A stretch of DNA of 64,000 bases from a virus (Duplodnaviria; Caudoviricetes): IMG/VR virus record IMGVR_UViG_3300020049_004561, positions 7,593 to 71,592 of that record; one strand, given 5' to 3'. Positions 29,901 to 61,051 of this stretch are shown here, in pieces. The notes below the pieces were generated by a model. It was given only the letters and a program-made list of their open reading frames with translations, was not told where the DNA came from and made no database searches. Each line of letters starts with the position of its first letter. Position 1 is the first letter of the stretch. The translations under genes were made by a program, and so were the position numbers.

Positions 29901-31139
29901 ATGGCTGGATGGAATAACAATAAATGCTGCTGTACACCTCGAACAAGATGTCAGGGAGAGGTTGATATATGTTGCATGACCCTGCAAGCAAGCACCTGGG
30001 CTTATGCAATATCTCTGTATACAGTAGGGACCGATCCTGACGATACCTGCGGTTACGTCAATAATGGATACCACCATAACAATCGTTGTGGTAGGTTGGC
30101 ACCTTTGAATATATGTACAGATAACTTACGGTTAATTGAGGTTCATTGGGGAGAGAGTGACCTGTATGGGGGGGATGTAAGATTAAGCGTGTTCATTCCT
30201 TCCACTGTAGATGGTAGCGGGAACTATGTTGATCCTGTTTTCTATGAGACATTCCTAGACTCTCTCACGTGGTACTTATCTCCTGTTGTGTTCATTGTCG
30301 ATGGGGTTACCTATACCCTGTCAGTATGCCCTGATCCGCACGAGCCTTTTCCTGAGTGGCCGTTATCACAGGTGTTCTTCCAGACTACCATCAACAGTCA
30401 TCCGACTCGATCTTTTGGTAACCTAACTTGCGGGGCCCCCTGCGACCCCGATTTTACTCAAGAGGGCAACATACAGATGCGCCTGCTGTGGTCCTACAAC
30501 ATATACAGTGATAAGATAACTATATCTATGCTGTACATTGAACCAGCAGGCATTTGGGAAGGAGACTTAGAAGTAGACTATGATTCAGGGAACTGGTCTA
30601 CAGGAACTTACACACTCACCCTAACTGAAAGGCTTATAGAAGGTAAGCCAGATATCACGGCTACAGTTTCTCCGGCAGACTCCTGCGACATTCCACCTCC
30701 ACCACCTCCTTGTGAAGCCTATACCTGCTTTCCTGAGTGTTTGGTGAATACGTGTGACGGAGGAGCCACTCCTAATCCCCTTGCCTTGTTCTTGGATGTC
30801 ACGTCCTTGAACGGTTGCTGCCTGAATGGAAGTTATGGCTTCACATGGACAGGGGGCGGCTACTACTCAGGCAAGATTGGTGACCAGTTCCTTGTGACTT
30901 GTGGCTATGTTGAAATTTGGTACGAGTGTGTGGGTGACCAGTTTCGAAGGCGAGTAAAGGTCACGGACGTGACGGGAGGCACGAGCGAATCTACAGAAAA
31001 TGATCCAGGAGCCTGTTCAGGCACTCCAGAAAACTTCATTGATTCCTTTATCTGCGTCTTCCCTTTCGTACCTGTGTGCTTTAACCTACCACCATTCTTT
31101 ACCGACACGGTGACCTTTGACATCTACACCAACAACTAA
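29901..31139 (+). CDS. Cys-rich tail-associated protein (receptor-binding candidate)
   Basis: 412 aa starting KCCC with many Cys; follows the hub gene. Confidence 0.55.
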   Translation: MAGWNNNKCCCTPRTRCQGEVDICCMTLQASTWAYAISLYTVGTDPDDTCGYVNNGYHHNNRCGRLAPLNICTDNLRLIEVHWGESDLYGGDVRLSVFIPSTVDGSGNYVDPVFYETFLDSLTWYLSPVVFIVDGVTYTLSVCPDPHEPFPEWPLSQVFFQTTINSHPTRSFGNLTCGAPCDPDFTQEGNIQMRLLWSYNIYSDKITISMLYIEPAGIWEGDLEVDYDSGNWSTGTYTLTLTERLIEGKPDITATVSPADSCDIPPPPPPCEAYTCFPECLVNTCDGGATPNPLALFLDVTSLNGCCLNGSYGFTWTGGGYYSGKIGDQFLVTCGYVEIWYECVGDQFRRRVKVTDVTGGTSESTENDPGACSGTPENFIDSFICVFPFVPVCFNLPPFFTDTVTFDIYTNN

Positions 31140-32328
31140 CCTGACTCCAGAATCGCTGGCCAGGATCGAAGAACATAGACGCAGGAGGTTTCCTCCCAAG
31201 GAAAAAGGGCGGCGATCTAAGCCTACTGCCACAGCCCAGAGATGGGTATCTTTATCCGATCTTGGTGCCGACTCAGCAAAGCTCGCAGCAATGGTAGCAG
31301 GCAAGGTAGACTGCATCATCGGTGTTGCTCGTTCTGGAATGACTCCAGCAACGATTGTAGCTACAATGCTGCATCTTCCTCTGCTGGTACTCAGACAGTC
31401 TGAGGGCGACATAATTGGTGCGGGTCACGGCTGGAGATTGGGAGACAAAGAGTTCAGCAATCCGTTGGTGATCGACGACACATCATGCTCCGGGCAGAGC
31501 CTGACTAAAGTCAAGAAGATCGTAGCGGTGAGTGGAATCGATCCAGAGTACGCTGTGGTCTACTATGACAAGAAATCAAAAGAACCGGTCGACTACTTCG
31601 TCAAGGAACTACCCAGACCACACGTACTTGAATGGAATATTGCCAATAGTGTGTATTCCAGTCAGATGCTCTGGGATATGGATGGGGTGATCTGTGAAGA
31701 CTGCCCTAACTATGTCGATGATGATGAGCACTACGCCAACTGGCTCACTATTGCAAAGCCCAAGTGTCTTCCTTTGAGGAGCAAGATCAGGATCGTCACA
31801 GGTAGACGCGAGGCGTGGCGACCACAGACTGAGGCGTGGCTTGCTAAGCATGGTGTTGATGCTGAGATCATCATGCACCCTGACGGAGAGCGTACAGGCC
31901 AGTCTGTGATTGAGCATAAGGCTGCTGCTGTGCTCAAGTATGCAACAGGACCGGTTGCGATGCTGGAGAGTGATAAGCGGCAGGCGATTCGTATCCAGGA
32001 GATCACAGGTAAGCCTATATGGTATGTGGGAGAAGGCGATGAAGCAGAGAATATTGTCCCCGCCAAGAGGATGGACTGGACATTGGAGTATCCCTGTGTG
32101 TATCGTGGAGAACAACAGGCCGAGGGATCGTGCGGCTGTGCTGGAGCCGACAAGATTCCCGTCTACGCCTGCCAGGAGACACCAGGAACGCAGTGTGTGG
32201 TCCTCAAGTCCAACCAAGGACGGATGACCCGCAAGGACCGCAAATGGTCAGGACTCCGGGCCTGTGAAGACTGTCCTTTGGCAAAATCCGAGATTCCACC
32301 GAACACTTCCGATCCACCGGCGGTATAG
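31117..32328 (+). CDS. phosphoribosyltransferase + HAD/PNKP-like + Cys-rich fusion protein
   Basis: IIGVARSG...LVIDDTSCSGQSL (PRPP loop); WDMDGVIC, IVTGR...TEAWL, ESD (HAD motifs); C-terminal CVYRG...CGC...VYAC...CEDC. Confidence 0.8.
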   Translation: MTSTPTTNLTPESLARIEEHRRRRFPPKEKGRRSKPTATAQRWVSLSDLGADSAKLAAMVAGKVDCIIGVARSGMTPATIVATMLHLPLLVLRQSEGDIIGAGHGWRLGDKEFSNPLVIDDTSCSGQSLTKVKKIVAVSGIDPEYAVVYYDKKSKEPVDYFVKELPRPHVLEWNIANSVYSSQMLWDMDGVICEDCPNYVDDDEHYANWLTIAKPKCLPLRSKIRIVTGRREAWRPQTEAWLAKHGVDAEIIMHPDGERTGQSVIEHKAAAVLKYATGPVAMLESDKRQAIRIQEITGKPIWYVGEGDEAENIVPAKRMDWTLEYPCVYRGEQQAEGSCGCAGADKIPVYACQETPGTQCVVLKSNQGRMTRKDRKWSGLRACEDCPLAKSEIPPNTSDPPAV

Positions 32329-32343: not shown

Positions 32344-32628
32344 ATGTCAGCAATCACGATCAGGTCGAAAGTCCGTTGTGGGAACAGCATCCGATCAGGT
32401 ACGAGATCACGCAGCTTCTTCGTACTTGTTCAGTTGCCTGCCTTGTGTTGTTTGCTTGGGTGTCTTGGTTCAGTGTACTACTGGACATACACCCAGGCAT
32501 TCTACTACTACCCTAACCGGCACGTAGGCGAGGCTCAGGCCGTAGGTGCTGCTCTGGCTACTGTGGTTTGTGGGTGGCTGTTCTACACTCTCTGTAAGCA
32601 TCAGGAGAAGCAATGCAGCAGTACATAA
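32344..32628 (+). CDS. small membrane protein
   Basis: GGAGG SD before ATG 32344; two hydrophobic segments. Confidence 0.55.
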   Translation: MSAITIRSKVRCGNSIRSGTRSRSFFVLVQLPALCCLLGCLGSVYYWTYTQAFYYYPNRHVGEAQAVGAALATVVCGWLFYTLCKHQEKQCSST

Positions 32629-32918: not shown

Positions 32919-33934
32919 TCTTTCACAAGCTACTCCCCGATGGTTTCAAAAGAGACGCAGACGGCTTGCTGGGCGTATGCTCATCAGCGTTACGTGAGTC
33001 GGTTGTGATTCTCCTTGGGGGACCATCAGCATCGCGAACACTGGACAACGTAGGCTTTACAAACCTACCAACCATGTCTGTCAACTGTGGTCACATGAGT
33101 CAGACTTCAGCTATCGACCCAAACTACTGGACGGGCTACGACAACCCAGTACGGTTCGATATGTCAGTCTTCCTTGATCCGAGAGTGTTGAAGTTTTGTC
33201 CGTCAGTTCGCTCAGGTGAACTTCTACGAGACAACCGTACTCTGCTATCAGAGTGCCCTTCTGTGATCTTCTTTGATGCCCAGAAGAGAGCCAGTAATGG
33301 TGAGCTGTTCAGTCTTGGGCCTGTCATCGATACTCGCGACTCCATGCTGCAAGCAATCGACATTGCCATCAAGCTGGGATTCAAGGACATTTTGCTTCAT
33401 GGTGCCGACTTATACACCGCACTATCAGATGAGCAGGTGGACCACATCAATCAACAGTTGAAGTTGGTTGGTGCTGATCTGCCCTTCACCTTAGCCTGCA
33501 GCGTCAACTCCAGTATGGAAGCCTTGTCCTGTATCGCACATGCCAAGGTTTGTAAGGACACAGCACCCGCTGATATGACGGACTCTCAGAAGATCGCTTG
33601 TGAGGCTGTCGTAGATGAACTCGTCTCGATGCTGTCCAGGATGACTACTCCTGAGATGTACAGTGCTGGGAATGCGAACACGAGGCTTAAGGACAACCTG
33701 AAGTCCGACTACCACTACCGAGTCACTTCTGGTAGGCTGATTGGAGCCAGACGGAACCTGGACGCTCTTGGCGTGTCTGTGTCTTTGCTGAGGGGACCAC
33801 AGGACTTCAAGAGTCGACTGGATGGGTTCTTTCCTGTGGTCCGTATTGCTGATGTTAAGGATCGACTGACGATGACTGATCCAGATTATCATGCTGTAGG
33901 GATGTACAGACGGGTTGATCCGGGGGTTGCCTGA
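32915..33934 (+). CDS. Maf/DUF115-like (GT42 sialyltransferase-fold) protein
   Basis: VILLGGPS, TMSVN, PNYWTGYD, DSMLQAIDIAIKLGFKDILLHGAD follow the GxGPS...N...S...A..LG.k.I.L.G.D pattern. Confidence 0.65.
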   Translation: MIFHKLLPDGFKRDADGLLGVCSSALRESVVILLGGPSASRTLDNVGFTNLPTMSVNCGHMSQTSAIDPNYWTGYDNPVRFDMSVFLDPRVLKFCPSVRSGELLRDNRTLLSECPSVIFFDAQKRASNGELFSLGPVIDTRDSMLQAIDIAIKLGFKDILLHGADLYTALSDEQVDHINQQLKLVGADLPFTLACSVNSSMEALSCIAHAKVCKDTAPADMTDSQKIACEAVVDELVSMLSRMTTPEMYSAGNANTRLKDNLKSDYHYRVTSGRLIGARRNLDALGVSVSLLRGPQDFKSRLDGFFPVVRIADVKDRLTMTDPDYHAVGMYRRVDPGVA

Positions 33935-33945
33935 CCACAGGTCAC

Positions 33946-33979
33946 TTGACGCCTAGGCAGGATTATGGTAATCTCTGCC
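33946..33979 (+). promoter_or_regulatory. promoter TTGACG-N17-TAATCT-CTGCC with an overlapping palindrome
   Basis: GGCAG-GATTA-TGG-TAATC-T-CTGCC at 33956-33979. Confidence 0.7.
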
Positions 33980-34004
33980 ATCACGACACGCACTGCAGGA
34001 ACAC

Positions 34005-34307
34005 ATGATGAGTCTTGACGCTTTTGAACTGGAAGTCGTTGCTGCCTTCGTGGAGATGGAACGGGCCTCCAGCGACGTGGGGCGGCGGTTCCTTATGGGT
34101 GGGGGCGGCTTCGACAAGCACGAGGCTGCCCGCTCGGTCGCTCCTGATTGGCTCCGCAAGTGGAACGACGATCACAACTGGGCTATCTGTTTCGCGAACG
34201 GATACCGCGGCCTGTTGAGTATGGGTCAGGCTTTTGGCTACTCTCGGGAATGTCTGCTGCAGGATTTACTCATGTACCGAACTCCCCATGCGACCAGTGA
34301 AAACTGA
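34005..34307 (+). CDS. hypothetical protein
   Basis: CAGGA SD; 100 aa; first gene after the promoter. Confidence 0.6.
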   Translation: MMSLDAFELEVVAAFVEMERASSDVGRRFLMGGGGFDKHEAARSVAPDWLRKWNDDHNWAICFANGYRGLLSMGQAFGYSRECLLQDLLMYRTPHATSEN

Positions 34308-34397
34308 GCACATTTTGGGGAGCATAAATCAGCAGTTGGGAAGTCTGCTATGCTCGACGGAGTGTAGTAATCGCGATAGGCGGAAATCTGCTGAGTG

Positions 34398-34469
34398 TTC
34401 TCTGTAGTTTACTGGAAGAACGCAGGCACTCTAAAGCCTGCAGTGTGGGTTCGAATCCCATCAGAGAAC
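34398..34469 (+). tRNA. tRNA with CUA anticodon (amber suppressor type); no encoded CCA
   Basis: TTCTCTG/CAGAGAA acceptor; TA; D arm GTTT-ACTGGAA-GAAC; CAGGC-A-CTCTAAA-GCCTG with anticodon CTA at 34431-34433; T arm GTGGG-TTCGAAT-CCCAT. Confidence 0.85.
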
Positions 34470-34529
34470 ATGCTTATCTACCATGTGTAGATGGAGTAAC
34501 GGGTGCGTCAGTAATGGCGTGCTTAGCAA

Positions 34530-34670
34530 GTTGACGTGCGGCGGGGACAGTGACCCGCAAGGCGGTGTTCCGATGCCTGTGAGTAATTCGGAATGGGACC
34601 GGTGCAAGGCCGGATAAGTGGTTTTTAACCAGCTCTTGAAGCTAGCCGGTGCAATTCCGGCCACGTCGAT
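34530..34670 (+). ncRNA. non-canonical tRNA-like RNA, copy 1
   Basis: Closing stem TTGACGTG/CACGTCGA; CGGCGGGGACAG..ACCCGC arm; three or four internal hairpins; T-like arm GCCGG-TGCAATT-CCGGC stacked on the closing stem. Confidence 0.6.
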
Positions 34671-34695
34671 TCACAGCAGTCCAACAGGAGCAACC

Positions 34696-35220
34696 ATGAC
34701 GTGCATCGTAGGTCGAGTCCATGATGGTAAGGTGACCATTGGTGCTGACAGCATCGGTGCGGCTCACTACGACTACACCATCCGCAAGGACAAGAAACTC
34801 TTTCGACTAGGTGAGTTTGTCATCGGCTGTACTTCAAGCTACCGAATGATTCAACTCATTCAGTACAAGATGCATCCGCCAACTATCCCTGATGGGATGG
34901 ACCTACATGAGTACATGGTTGTTCACTTTGTCGAGGAACTTCGAGAGGTCCTGAAAGCCGGGGGCTTTGTTGAGATCGCGAGCAATGTCGAAAAAGGTGG
35001 TCAATCCCTTGTAGGGGTACGCGGCTGCCTTTTTCGGGTTGATTCTGACTTCCAAGTTGGAGAGTCGGTTTATGGCATGGATTCAATCGGATGTGGTCAG
35101 GATTATGCCCTGGGAGCAATGTTTTCCGGTGCTGATCTGGAAAAGGCTCTGCAGGTTGCTGAGCAGTGTTCCTGTGGTGTCAAGGGTCCTTTTCACTTTC
35201 TGACCACAGAGGATACGTAA
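34696..35220 (+). CDS. proteasome beta/HslV-like Ntn threonine protease
   Basis: MTCIVG (N-terminal Thr), VTIGADS, KLF, SIGCGQDYALGAM, ALQVA; CAGGAG SD before ATG 34696. Confidence 0.85.
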   Translation: MTCIVGRVHDGKVTIGADSIGAAHYDYTIRKDKKLFRLGEFVIGCTSSYRMIQLIQYKMHPPTIPDGMDLHEYMVVHFVEELREVLKAGGFVEIASNVEKGGQSLVGVRGCLFRVDSDFQVGESVYGMDSIGCGQDYALGAMFSGADLEKALQVAEQCSCGVKGPFHFLTTEDT

Positions 35221-35429
35221 TGACGATTCCGGCCCTGATGAATTGCCCGCATTCAGGAGAAGGCTGGTGTTTGTCCTGTGTTGAGAGGTTATCCTCCGAG
35301 TTGGATGACTGCTACTTTGCTCTGACAATTGCCCTGACTCAATCCTATGACGGGCCTTTACCTGATTCAGCTAGAGAAAGGATTTCAGGCGTAATGGATA
35401 AACACTCCGGGCATGCTGCAAGCTCCTAG
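35220..35429 (+). CDS. hypothetical protein with CxH...WCxxC
   Basis: TAATG overlap; MNCPHSGEGWCLSC. Confidence 0.55.
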   Translation: MTIPALMNCPHSGEGWCLSCVERLSSELDDCYFALTIALTQSYDGPLPDSARERISGVMDKHSGHAASS

Positions 35430-60202: not shown

Positions 60203-61051
60203 TTGATGGCAATGACACGAGTGCAGCAGCTCAACGGGGCGGTGGACCGCCTGAAGATGGAGCATGACCGGTGGCAGAAAGATCCTGAGGAGAGCACGAA
60301 TCCCTCTCACGGGATGGTCGAGGCCATCCGCGATATGCTGGAGGCGTTTCATGCTGGGCCCTGCCCTACGTCGCACTTGAAGCTCCACAATGCCGCCATG
60401 AACTTCAGCCTGAAGGTGGAGGAGTGGGAGGAAGACGCGAGCGGGGACCCACGTCCAGGGTACTGGACGGCAATGCGGGAACTGTTCGCCGCCCGGGAAC
60501 GCCTGAATGTGAAGCCTCAGGGAAGTCTGCCAACATGCAAGGCCCTGCGGCACGATCGCAAGATGACCGATTCGCAGATCTGCCTGGAATTCTACGGGTT
60601 CCGCACATCGGACGGGAAAACCTTCGACCCGGATTCGGATCGCTACTCCGGACCGCTGCTGAACTCCTACGGACAGATCGATAACGACCTGCTCGAAAAG
60701 GAAATCGAAACCCCTTAGAGCGTCATCCCGAAGGACTGGATCAACCCGCGAGCCCGCAAGGAACTGGAAGAAGCCGGTTACTTCGACCAGTCCCCAGCCT
60801 GCGGCAAGGTTCCGGAAACCCCCGAGCAGGCCAAGGAACGGGCCCTGAAGATGCTCACCGGCGGCGGGACAGTCGTCCAGATCGCCGACGTGTGCAAGAT
60901 GACCACTGCCGATGAAGACAGGGGATTAGTGCGAGAGGCATTCCCGGACACGGTTCGCCATATTGCGAACGTACCGCTGTCCGTACTTCGGGTACAGAGA
61001 ATGGCAGGACTCACCATTCAGCAGTTCCATCGCGAAGGGAATGAGGTCTGA
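60203..61051 (+). CDS. GC-rich gene interrupted by a single in-frame TAG at 60716-60718 (readthrough target or pseudogene)
   Basis: ORFs 60203..60718 and 60851..61051 share a frame, and 60719-60850 is open: ...EIETP*SVIPKDWINPRARKELEEAGYF...KMLTGGGTVVQIADVC. Confidence 0.65.

Follow-up and report, generated by a model that had tools for sequence, protein, structure and literature searches.

Does a phage that ends its genes at TAG also carry a tRNA that reads TAG as sense, or has a tRNA-like gene with a CUA triplet been kept for some other property of its RNA? The question is raised by a locus in a 64,000-nucleotide stretch of phage DNA (the window), which comes from a 71.6-kb IMG/VR virus record with a CheckV completeness of ~50%. 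A sequence-only reading had described at this locus a complete cloverleaf with the loop CT-CTA-AA, one extra A or a mismatch in the anticodon arm, a U1-A72 pair and a possible G-1:C73 pair, and all of these features are borne out by Rfam, ARAGORN and the sequence.

A CUA-bearing cloverleaf with an eight-nucleotide loop

The gene and its parts lie on the + strand as follows.

34397-34470, +: tRNA-like gene, G-1 to A74 (Rfam tRNA, ARAGORN; identical in the further assemblies L030 and L031)
34398-34404 with 34462-34468, +: acceptor stem
34407-34421, +: D arm
34423-34440, +: anticodon arm, 18 nt rather than 17 (sequence, inserted base in Rfam, mismatch in ARAGORN)
34445-34461, +: T arm
34469, +: C73

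Positions 34398-34469 (+) form a full-length match to Rfam RF00005 (model 1-71) at 50.7 bits, against a gathering score of 29, and the alignment contains one inserted base, located in the anticodon arm. ARAGORN, which had been proposed as a check, calls a tRNA at 34397-34470 as 'tRNA-???' and in verbose mode as 'tRNA-?(Arg|Pyl)(ct)', and draws an 8-bp acceptor stem that includes G-1:C73. Read from the sequence, the acceptor stem is UUCUCUG/CAGAGAA with U1-A72, the D arm is GUUU-ACUGGAA-GAAC and contains G18 and G19, the GG of the D loop that is required for contact between the D and T loops, the variable loop is CAGU, and the T arm is GUGGG-UUCGAAU-CCCAU. G26 is present and the pair G26-C44 can extend the anticodon stem to six pairs, G34397 (-1) is able to pair with C34469 (73), both of which are invariant in 6 distinct sequences, and CCA is not encoded at the 3′ end.

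The anticodon arm departs from the tRNA norm by a single base. Its stem, CAGGC/GCCUG, encloses a loop at 34428-34435 made of A34428 followed by C32 U33 C34 U35 A36 A37 A38, placing the CUA at 34431-34433 and the CU-CUA-AA core at 34429-34435, with the extra A34428 on the 5′ side of C32. CUCUAAA, with U33, CUA, A37 and A38, is the textbook amber suppressor loop. A canonical 7-nt loop cannot be drawn here: the loop has 8 nt unless an A.A mismatch is allowed to close it, in which case it has 6 nt, as ARAGORN draws it. The gene shares G-1:C73 with tRNA-His and lacks its GUG anticodon, as the loop reads A-CU-CUA-AA.

The sequence is reproducible. L030 and L031, two further assemblies of this phage obtained from different samples, match the window at 99.46% identity over 3.3 kb and at 99.96% over 2.7 kb, respectively, and both are 100% identical to it over 34300-34700, which disposes of the concern that CUA or the extra A might be an assembly error. 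DNA searches of catalogued phages returned no relative of the region, an exact-pattern scan of viral contigs for the window-type anticodon arm found none, and pattern scans of bacterial genomes for the anticodon arm or the downstream hairpin also found none.

TAG is a normal stop in this phage

A codon-bias gene model under translation table 11 contains 115 genes and leaves ~89% of the DNA coding, and these genes end at TGA (44), TAA (42) or TAG (29). At least 18 of the 29 TAG stops overlap the start of the next gene or lie within 16 nt of it, and the closely abutted cases include the primase-helicase gene and several virion genes. The TAG codons at 2088, 3792 and 24583, cited earlier as gene ends, are genuine gene ends in this model, and the accompanying claim that the genome is not globally recoded agrees with its stop usage and coding density. 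Open frames gain nothing special when TAG is treated as a sense codon, and in-frame 'split' open reading frames occur at TAG no more often than at the other two stops. Back-up stops give no signal after TAG, with a median extension of 18 codons compared to 11.5 for TAA and 14 for TGA (p = 0.34). Together, the use of TAG at gene ends, the absence of open-frame gain and the absence of back-up stops identify TAG as a normal stop of the standard code and reveal no adaptation to an efficient suppressor.

Candidate readthrough sites were considered one by one. The TAG at 32326, which joins 404 and 99 codons in frame, separates two genes, the second of which has its own GGAGG-N6-ATG at 32344. The remaining TAGs in 'split' frames, other than that at 60716, are antisense or out-of-frame artefacts, or true stops followed by a gene with its own Shine-Dalgarno sequence and ATG. 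The 71.6 kb contains no genes for tRNA repair or CCA addition (PF09414, PF09511 and PF01743); the control for PF09511 was uninformative.

A single in-frame TAG is polymorphic

One in-frame TAG is present in the 71.6 kb, at 60716, and the gene that contains it is the sole candidate target of suppression.

60206-61051, +: 281-codon gene with TAG at 60716-60718 (codon 171), defined by homologues, coding signal and the protein of a sister strain

A full-library search with the readthrough product returned 99 homologues, and the best 8 of the 99 (E 1e-42 to 1e-101, 306-321 aa) give uninterrupted alignments between residue 3 and ~236 that span the TAG. At the TAG position these eight proteins carry W, H, G, G, R, Y, G and Y; W is the residue in the nearest of them, at 65% identity. 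Past the TAG, the coding bias persists in the same frame to about 60913, and conservation within the family is highest in the ~63 residues that follow it. The alignment of homologues through the TAG thus identifies a real gene interrupted by one stop. The TAG allele occurs in 4 of 5 assemblies, where the gene is called as pieces of 170 aa and 66 aa. In the L031 record (72,092 nt) the codon is TGG, and a single 281-aa protein (P0226, with W171) is identical to the readthrough product of the window. The tRNA-like gene of this strain is identical to that of the window, and the TAG therefore reflects a recent TGG-to-TAG change that is polymorphic in a single phage population, not programmed readthrough. 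The link to 60716 drawn by the sequence-only reading accordingly survives in part: the TAG does interrupt a genuine conserved gene, but 'selective' readthrough does not fit a sister strain that has the same tRNA and TGG. The results lend no support to temporal control of suppression or to a role against a nonsense-type host defence. The base after the TAG is A.

The family of this gene (~310 aa) has no match in Pfam or PHROG, and the fragments of three IMG/VR relatives end short of the gene. As a separate observation, the final ~75 residues that all eight close homologues have in common are missing from the protein, which ends in an unrelated tail of 45 residues.

Anticodon arms at the same locus in related phages

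Relatives were reached through the neighbouring 339-aa gene, the HslV-like gene or one DNA pattern, and compare with the window as follows.

L014/L015: 339-aa gene, 89% protein identity
L016: 339-aa gene, 79% protein identity
L002: 339-aa gene, 74% protein identity
L003, L004, L017-19: 339-aa gene, 68% protein identity
L025-27: HslV-like gene, 84% protein identity
L028: HslV-like gene, 73% protein identity
L013: short fragment found through the DNA pattern, identity not compared

The orthologous locus is present in L002, L003, L004, L013, L014/15, L017-19 and L028. Four segments are near-invariant in the alignments: an upstream stretch of ~85 nt, the 5′ half of the acceptor stem together with G-1, the T arm joined to the 3′ half of the acceptor stem and C73, and ~55 nt downstream. 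The ~40-nt middle, comprising the D arm, anticodon arm and variable loop, occurs in four forms that do not align with one another.

Type 1 (window, L030, L031): CAGGC-ACUCUAAA-GCCUG, 8-nt loop; Rfam tRNA, 50.7 bits
Type 2 (L014/15): GGGG-UGUC-CCCC, 4-6-nt loop; ARAGORN 'anticodon (gt)', no Rfam match
Type 3 (L003, L013, L028): D arm, then a 3-bp stub GCC-UGAA/GUAA-GGC; Rfam tRNA, 41-43 bits, anticodon arm skipped
Type 4 (L004, L017-19, L002): 5 nt shorter, without D arm, one 10-bp hairpin with a 5-nt loop; no tRNA call

None of the four types has a 7-nt anticodon loop, and the window copy is the sole version with a complete cloverleaf. Judged from their predicted folds, the copies in the relatives are unable to decode, and CUA is not conserved as a decoding feature: the eight related contigs are without a usable anticodon loop. 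The gene in the window is thus a cloverleaf that scores with RF00005, yet has neither a canonical loop nor a conserved anticodon arm.

The forms retain traces of one another. Types 1 and 3 share GCAG, UAA(A)GCCUG and CAGU in that order, and type 3 looks like a type 1 copy that has lost the 5′ stem strand and most loop bases and has gained a small insertion. In type 2 the stem is kept, the pair 31-39 is flipped from C-G to G-C and the loop is shortened. Elsewhere the element is lost altogether: in L016 the tRNA-like gene is absent and the downstream hairpins are kept, and in L025-27 the two protein genes are separated by 71 nt and the whole RNA block is missing, which marks the cluster as accessory. 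The 71-nt spacers at L025:587-657 and L026:1301-1371 stand in place of ~750 nt of RNA block, beside an HslV-like protein that is 84% identical.

Selection acts on the acceptor stem and T arm

Mean pairwise identity is 0.77-0.90 in the flanks, acceptor stem and T arm (82-90% in the acceptor and T arms) compared to 0.36 in the D/anticodon domain, and the identity of these lineages at third codon positions in the adjacent gene is 0.43-0.58. Because the constant parts exceed silent sites in identity, the flanks, acceptor stem and T arm are under purifying selection; by the same comparison, the middle domain changes at least as fast as silent sites.

Base pairing is maintained through substitution. 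The acceptor stem (8 bp with G-1:C73 counted) and T stem comprise 13 pairs, and 97.4% of their cells in the alignment pair. Both partners have been substituted in three of the pairs: 5-68 (C-G to A-U) and 6-67 (U-A to C-G) in L014, and 49-65 (G-C to A-U) in L002. Only 3 of 500 shuffled controls reach the observed values of pairing and double change, and slid controls pair at 44-56%. The D stem covaries too, with pair 11-24 being U-A in the window and C-G in L014 and L003. These compensatory changes show selection on RNA structure, and the constraint on the acceptor and T arms, set beside middles that in relatives cannot decode, indicates that selection is not on CUA.

The middle types do not track the phylogeny of the flanking genes. 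L003 and L004 are 92% identical in the gene and match at 48/50 and 55/57 positions in the flanks, but at only 10/41 in the middle; L004 and L002, with genes only 70% identical, match at 34/36 positions in the middle. From these mosaic patterns, the middle behaves like a cassette swapped by recombination inside conserved flanks.

A structured RNA block between the virion and replication modules

The genome is laid out as a virion module and a replication module, and between them lies a non-coding RNA block of ~380 nt with a minimum free energy z-score of -2.95. In order, the block contains a leader hairpin, the tRNA-like gene, two hairpins and a long second tRNA-like element.

34346-34369, +: upstream hairpin, 10 bp, loop GACG (RNAalifold; covarying)
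34471-34498, +: downstream hairpin A, 11 bp with one bulge (RNAalifold; compensatory changes in L003, L014 and L016)
34501-34524, +: downstream hairpin B, 10 bp, loop GUAA (RNAalifold; G-C to A-U in L003-type sequences)
34532-34668, +: second, long tRNA-like element (sequence and alignment)

The upstream hairpin sits in a ~85-nt leader (roughly 34315-34396) that is conserved among relatives, and its stem changes from CUAUGCUC/GAGUGUAG to CCUAUUCU/AGAAUAGG in relatives with pairing kept. Hairpin A starts 2 nt past C73. The retention of the hairpins at 34471-34524 in L016, which has lost the tRNA-like element, argues that they have a function of their own, perhaps in 3′ processing or as a protective structure.

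The second element is composed of a closing stem, UGACGUG/CACGUCG (UGACGUG/CACGUCA in L002 and L003), a T-arm-like hairpin, GCCGG-UGCAAUU-CCGGC, and an insert of ~100 nt. A homologue is located at about 45104-45200, adjoining a true tRNA-Thr, and the element is also found in L002, L003 and L028. In relatives, a true tRNA-Arg(UCU) or tRNA-Met occurs within the same block, and this mixture of true tRNAs and tRNA-like elements describes a variable tRNA/tRNA-like gene cluster. A scan of 33900-34800 found no promoter or terminator consensus. Searches for tmRNA, Y RNA, mascRNA and HDV-like families (Rfam; ARAGORN for tmRNA) gave nothing above chance, including a beta_tmRNA fragment at the T arm of the second element that is at chance level (E 0.29).

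The long tRNA-like elements form a family in their own right, with a closing stem of 7-8 bp, a common hairpin GCGGGGACAG(U/A)GA..., a variable insert of 60-100 nt and a T-arm-like hairpin (GxCGG-UGCAAUU-CCGxx). Each member lies beside a tRNA or tRNA-like gene, and the closing stems differ in sequence and all pair. A further long element occupies L028:2483-2640, between the tRNA-like gene and hairpin A, with a closing stem GGCGUC.../...GACGCC and a T arm UUGGG-UUCGAUU-CCCUU; the site between the tRNA-like gene and hairpin A is a hot spot for such elements.

Comparison with known tRNAs and tRNA-like RNAs

There is precedent for a CUA tRNA in phages with TAG as a stop, since Sup-CTA genes are already annotated in standard-code phages. 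The Sup-CTA of Akh-2 (Demerecviridae, standard code) resembles the present gene in being phage-encoded, in its CUCUAAA core and T arm GUGGG-UUCGA-U-CCCAU, and in its place among tRNA-type genes; it has a canonical 7-nt loop in a 72-nt tRNA, whereas the loop here has 8 nt through the extra A. Unlike phage Sup-CTA tRNAs, this gene has orthologues that keep no anticodon. TAG-recoded gut phages also carry suppressor tRNAs (10.1101/2021.08.26.457843), but recoded phages have many in-frame TAGs in late genes, in contrast to the single, polymorphic TAG of this phage. What is less ordinary is the constant tRNA handle with an exchangeable or decayed anticodon domain in four forms, and its setting among long tRNA-like RNAs.

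The T4 tRNA cluster yields the stable RNAs 'species 1/2', which are comparable tRNA-like RNAs. As for such RNAs and for processing handles, the present gene is in a cluster with true tRNA genes and cuts by tRNA-processing enzymes are expected. Like the tRNA-like domain of tmRNA, mascRNA and the Y RNA tRNA mimics of bacteria and phages (PMC4201824), it has a conserved acceptor/T-arm module with dispensable anticodon function. It differs from tmRNA in having neither a tag frame nor pseudoknots and in receiving no tmRNA call from ARAGORN, and from Y RNAs in its normal tRNA topology, the 'acceptor' of Y RNAs being closed by a loop and open at the anticodon side (PMC4201824).

The 8-nt loop with UCUA/CUA recalls tRNAs with 8-membered loops, including frameshift suppressors, UAGN decoders (PMC4764823, PMC9094753) and yeast mitochondrial tRNA-Thr. 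In quadruplet decoders, however, the extra base extends the anticodon and U33 is kept, whereas the added base of this gene precedes C32 and its one candidate target calls for triplet reading. The possible eighth acceptor pair G-1:C73, invariant in relatives, is shared with the 8/4 and 9/3 allo-tRNAs (PMC5389517) and with bacterial tRNA-His, but the 5-bp T stem would make this gene 8/5 rather than 8/4, and it has neither a GUG anticodon nor a long variable arm. Theta ribozymes, which are minimal HDV-like ribozymes, occur directly 3′ of phage tRNAs and are enriched at suppressor tRNAs (10.1101/2023.06.13.544163). A conserved structured RNA likewise starts 2 nt past this CUA tRNA-like gene, but in place of a nested double pseudoknot the predicted downstream fold looks like two plain covarying hairpins with no HDV-like Rfam match.

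A probable tRNA-derived small RNA and its alternatives

We consider it somewhat probable that the gene produces a tRNA-derived small RNA within the structured-RNA cluster, in which an ancestral anticodon arm has been retained. The selected part would be the minihelix of acceptor stem and T arm with its flanking hairpins, not the anticodon. In established tRNA biology, RNase P, RNase Z and the CCA-adding enzyme recognise this minihelix of a tRNA, as does HisRS when G-1:C73 is present. Here the RNA block would be transcribed with the neighbouring + strand genes, and the minihelix would be seen by RNase P on its 5′ side and by RNase Z or exonucleases together with the CCA-adding enzyme on its 3′ side, such that host tRNA-processing enzymes would cut the RNAs apart and release stable small RNAs with defined ends; G-1:C73 could additionally make the RNA a HisRS substrate. 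The likeliest job of the conserved minihelix would be this cutting of the block's structured RNAs into stable small RNAs. The ancestor would have been an ordinary tRNA with a real anticodon arm, since deleted or replaced in related phages, and its loop may have ended in ...UAAA, which corresponds to an NUA anticodon, perhaps already CUA or else a Tyr-type GUA. In the simplest history the decoding end would have been lost several times while the other end stayed useful, and the window copy would be the least altered, but with a one-base insertion. Because related phages have deleted or replaced the arm and that of the window has the inserted A, CUA would be a relic or incidental, with no biologically important suppression.

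Several observations sit uneasily with a tRNA-derived small RNA. The window copy has a full cloverleaf with G18 G19, a UUCGAAU T-loop, U33 and A36-A37-A38 behind CUA; but for one added base, its loop is that of a classical amber suppressor, and CUA is one triplet among 64. The amber allele lies in a conserved gene in 4 of 5 assemblies, which the phage could tolerate if it had a suppressor. The processing, stability and charging of the RNA are all predictions from sequence, and absence of the element in L016 and of the whole block in L025-27 makes the RNA dispensable. A weak but working amber suppressor is accordingly the alternative to be taken most seriously, although we judge it unlikely: the RNA would be processed and charged and, its 8-membered loop notwithstanding, would decode UAG as a triplet with low efficiency, buffering amber mutations such as that at 60716, with His through G-1:C73 or Gln through U1-A72 and U35 as guesses at the amino acid. 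Such activity would be consistent with the full cloverleaf and exact CU-CUA-AA core, identical in three assemblies, with a TAG in the 60206 gene where the sister strain and nearest homologue have Trp and ahead of 63 codons that are the best conserved and keep their coding signal, with the prevalence of this allele (4/5 assemblies), and with the annotation of Sup-CTA in standard-code phages such as Aeromonas phage Akh-2. Anticodon loops of eight members can still read triplets, as in yeast mitochondrial tRNA-Thr, and Curran and Yarus reportedly engineered Su7 variants in 1987 with 8-membered anticodon loops that read triplets. Weighing against suppression are the departure from a 7-nt loop, the non-decoding forms in the closest relative (L014/15) and all others while the rest of the locus is under selection, the equal presence of the tRNA in the TGG strain, the single in-frame TAG in 71.6 kb and the absence of back-up-stop adaptation (p = 0.34).

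Three other alternatives rank lower. A decaying, functionless tRNA pseudogene, conserved through neighbouring elements or recent recombination, would account for a middle domain that evolves at a roughly neutral rate and for the loss of the element in L016 and L025-27, but is very unlikely given the compensatory double changes in the acceptor and T stems and in the D stem (11-24), and given acceptor and T arms that are 82-90% identical across lineages with saturated synonymous sites. The UCUA within the 8-nt loop and the A that follows TAG at 60716 would also allow a +1 frameshift suppressor that reads the quadruplet UAGA; homology after the TAG continues in the zero frame rather than +1, position 33 would be C instead of U and no other candidate sites were found, leaving this an extremely improbable explanation. 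An error of sequencing or assembly, by which CUA or the extra A would have arisen in an ordinary sense tRNA, can be practically discounted because three assemblies from different samples are identical. In a further reading, distinctly doubtful in our estimation, this phage group would possess a family of tRNA-shaped RNAs with a constant 'handle' and an exchangeable middle cassette that gives function or specificity. The handle would consist of the acceptor stem (including G-1:C73) together with the T arm and flanking hairpins, and the cassette would be four old alleles shuffled between lineages by recombination, acting for example as bait or decoy against anticodon nucleases of the host and other defences that target tRNAs, or as a guide-like loop; the arm with CUA would then be one of these alleles, with low-level amber suppression as a possible additional effect.

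In the output of a tRNA finder this gene would appear as a 'suppressor' or 'undetermined' tRNA, from which readthrough or recoding might be inferred, and comparison with relatives indicates that suppressor-type calls can be relics. At this locus selection appears to keep the processing and charging end, leaving the anticodon end free to decay or be swapped. If the pattern of handle and cassette is functional, it would represent a new type of phage small RNA on a tRNA scaffold, possibly tied to conflicts over host tRNAs; if the RNA instead suppresses weakly, the TGG/TAG polymorphism would offer a natural test of how a phage-borne suppressor buffers nonsense mutations in a standard-code genome.

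Neighbouring genes and strain variation

At the end of the virion module, a protein with a phosphoribosyltransferase domain (PF00156, 31.5 bits) is encoded at 31117-32328 and is kept in all relatives. Directly after the RNA cluster lies a gene for an HslV-family peptidase (34687-35220; PHROG 1040, E 2e-25) with more than 100 metagenome homologues; its likely start is the ATG at 34687 behind AGGAG, not the GTG at 34618, which overlaps the second tRNA-like element. Just past the HslV-like gene, comparison of L031:2704-2711 with window positions 35211-35418 reveals a strain indel of ~200 nt, followed by a stretch that is only 95.6% identical, marking a local recombination patch between strains that are otherwise 99.96% identical.
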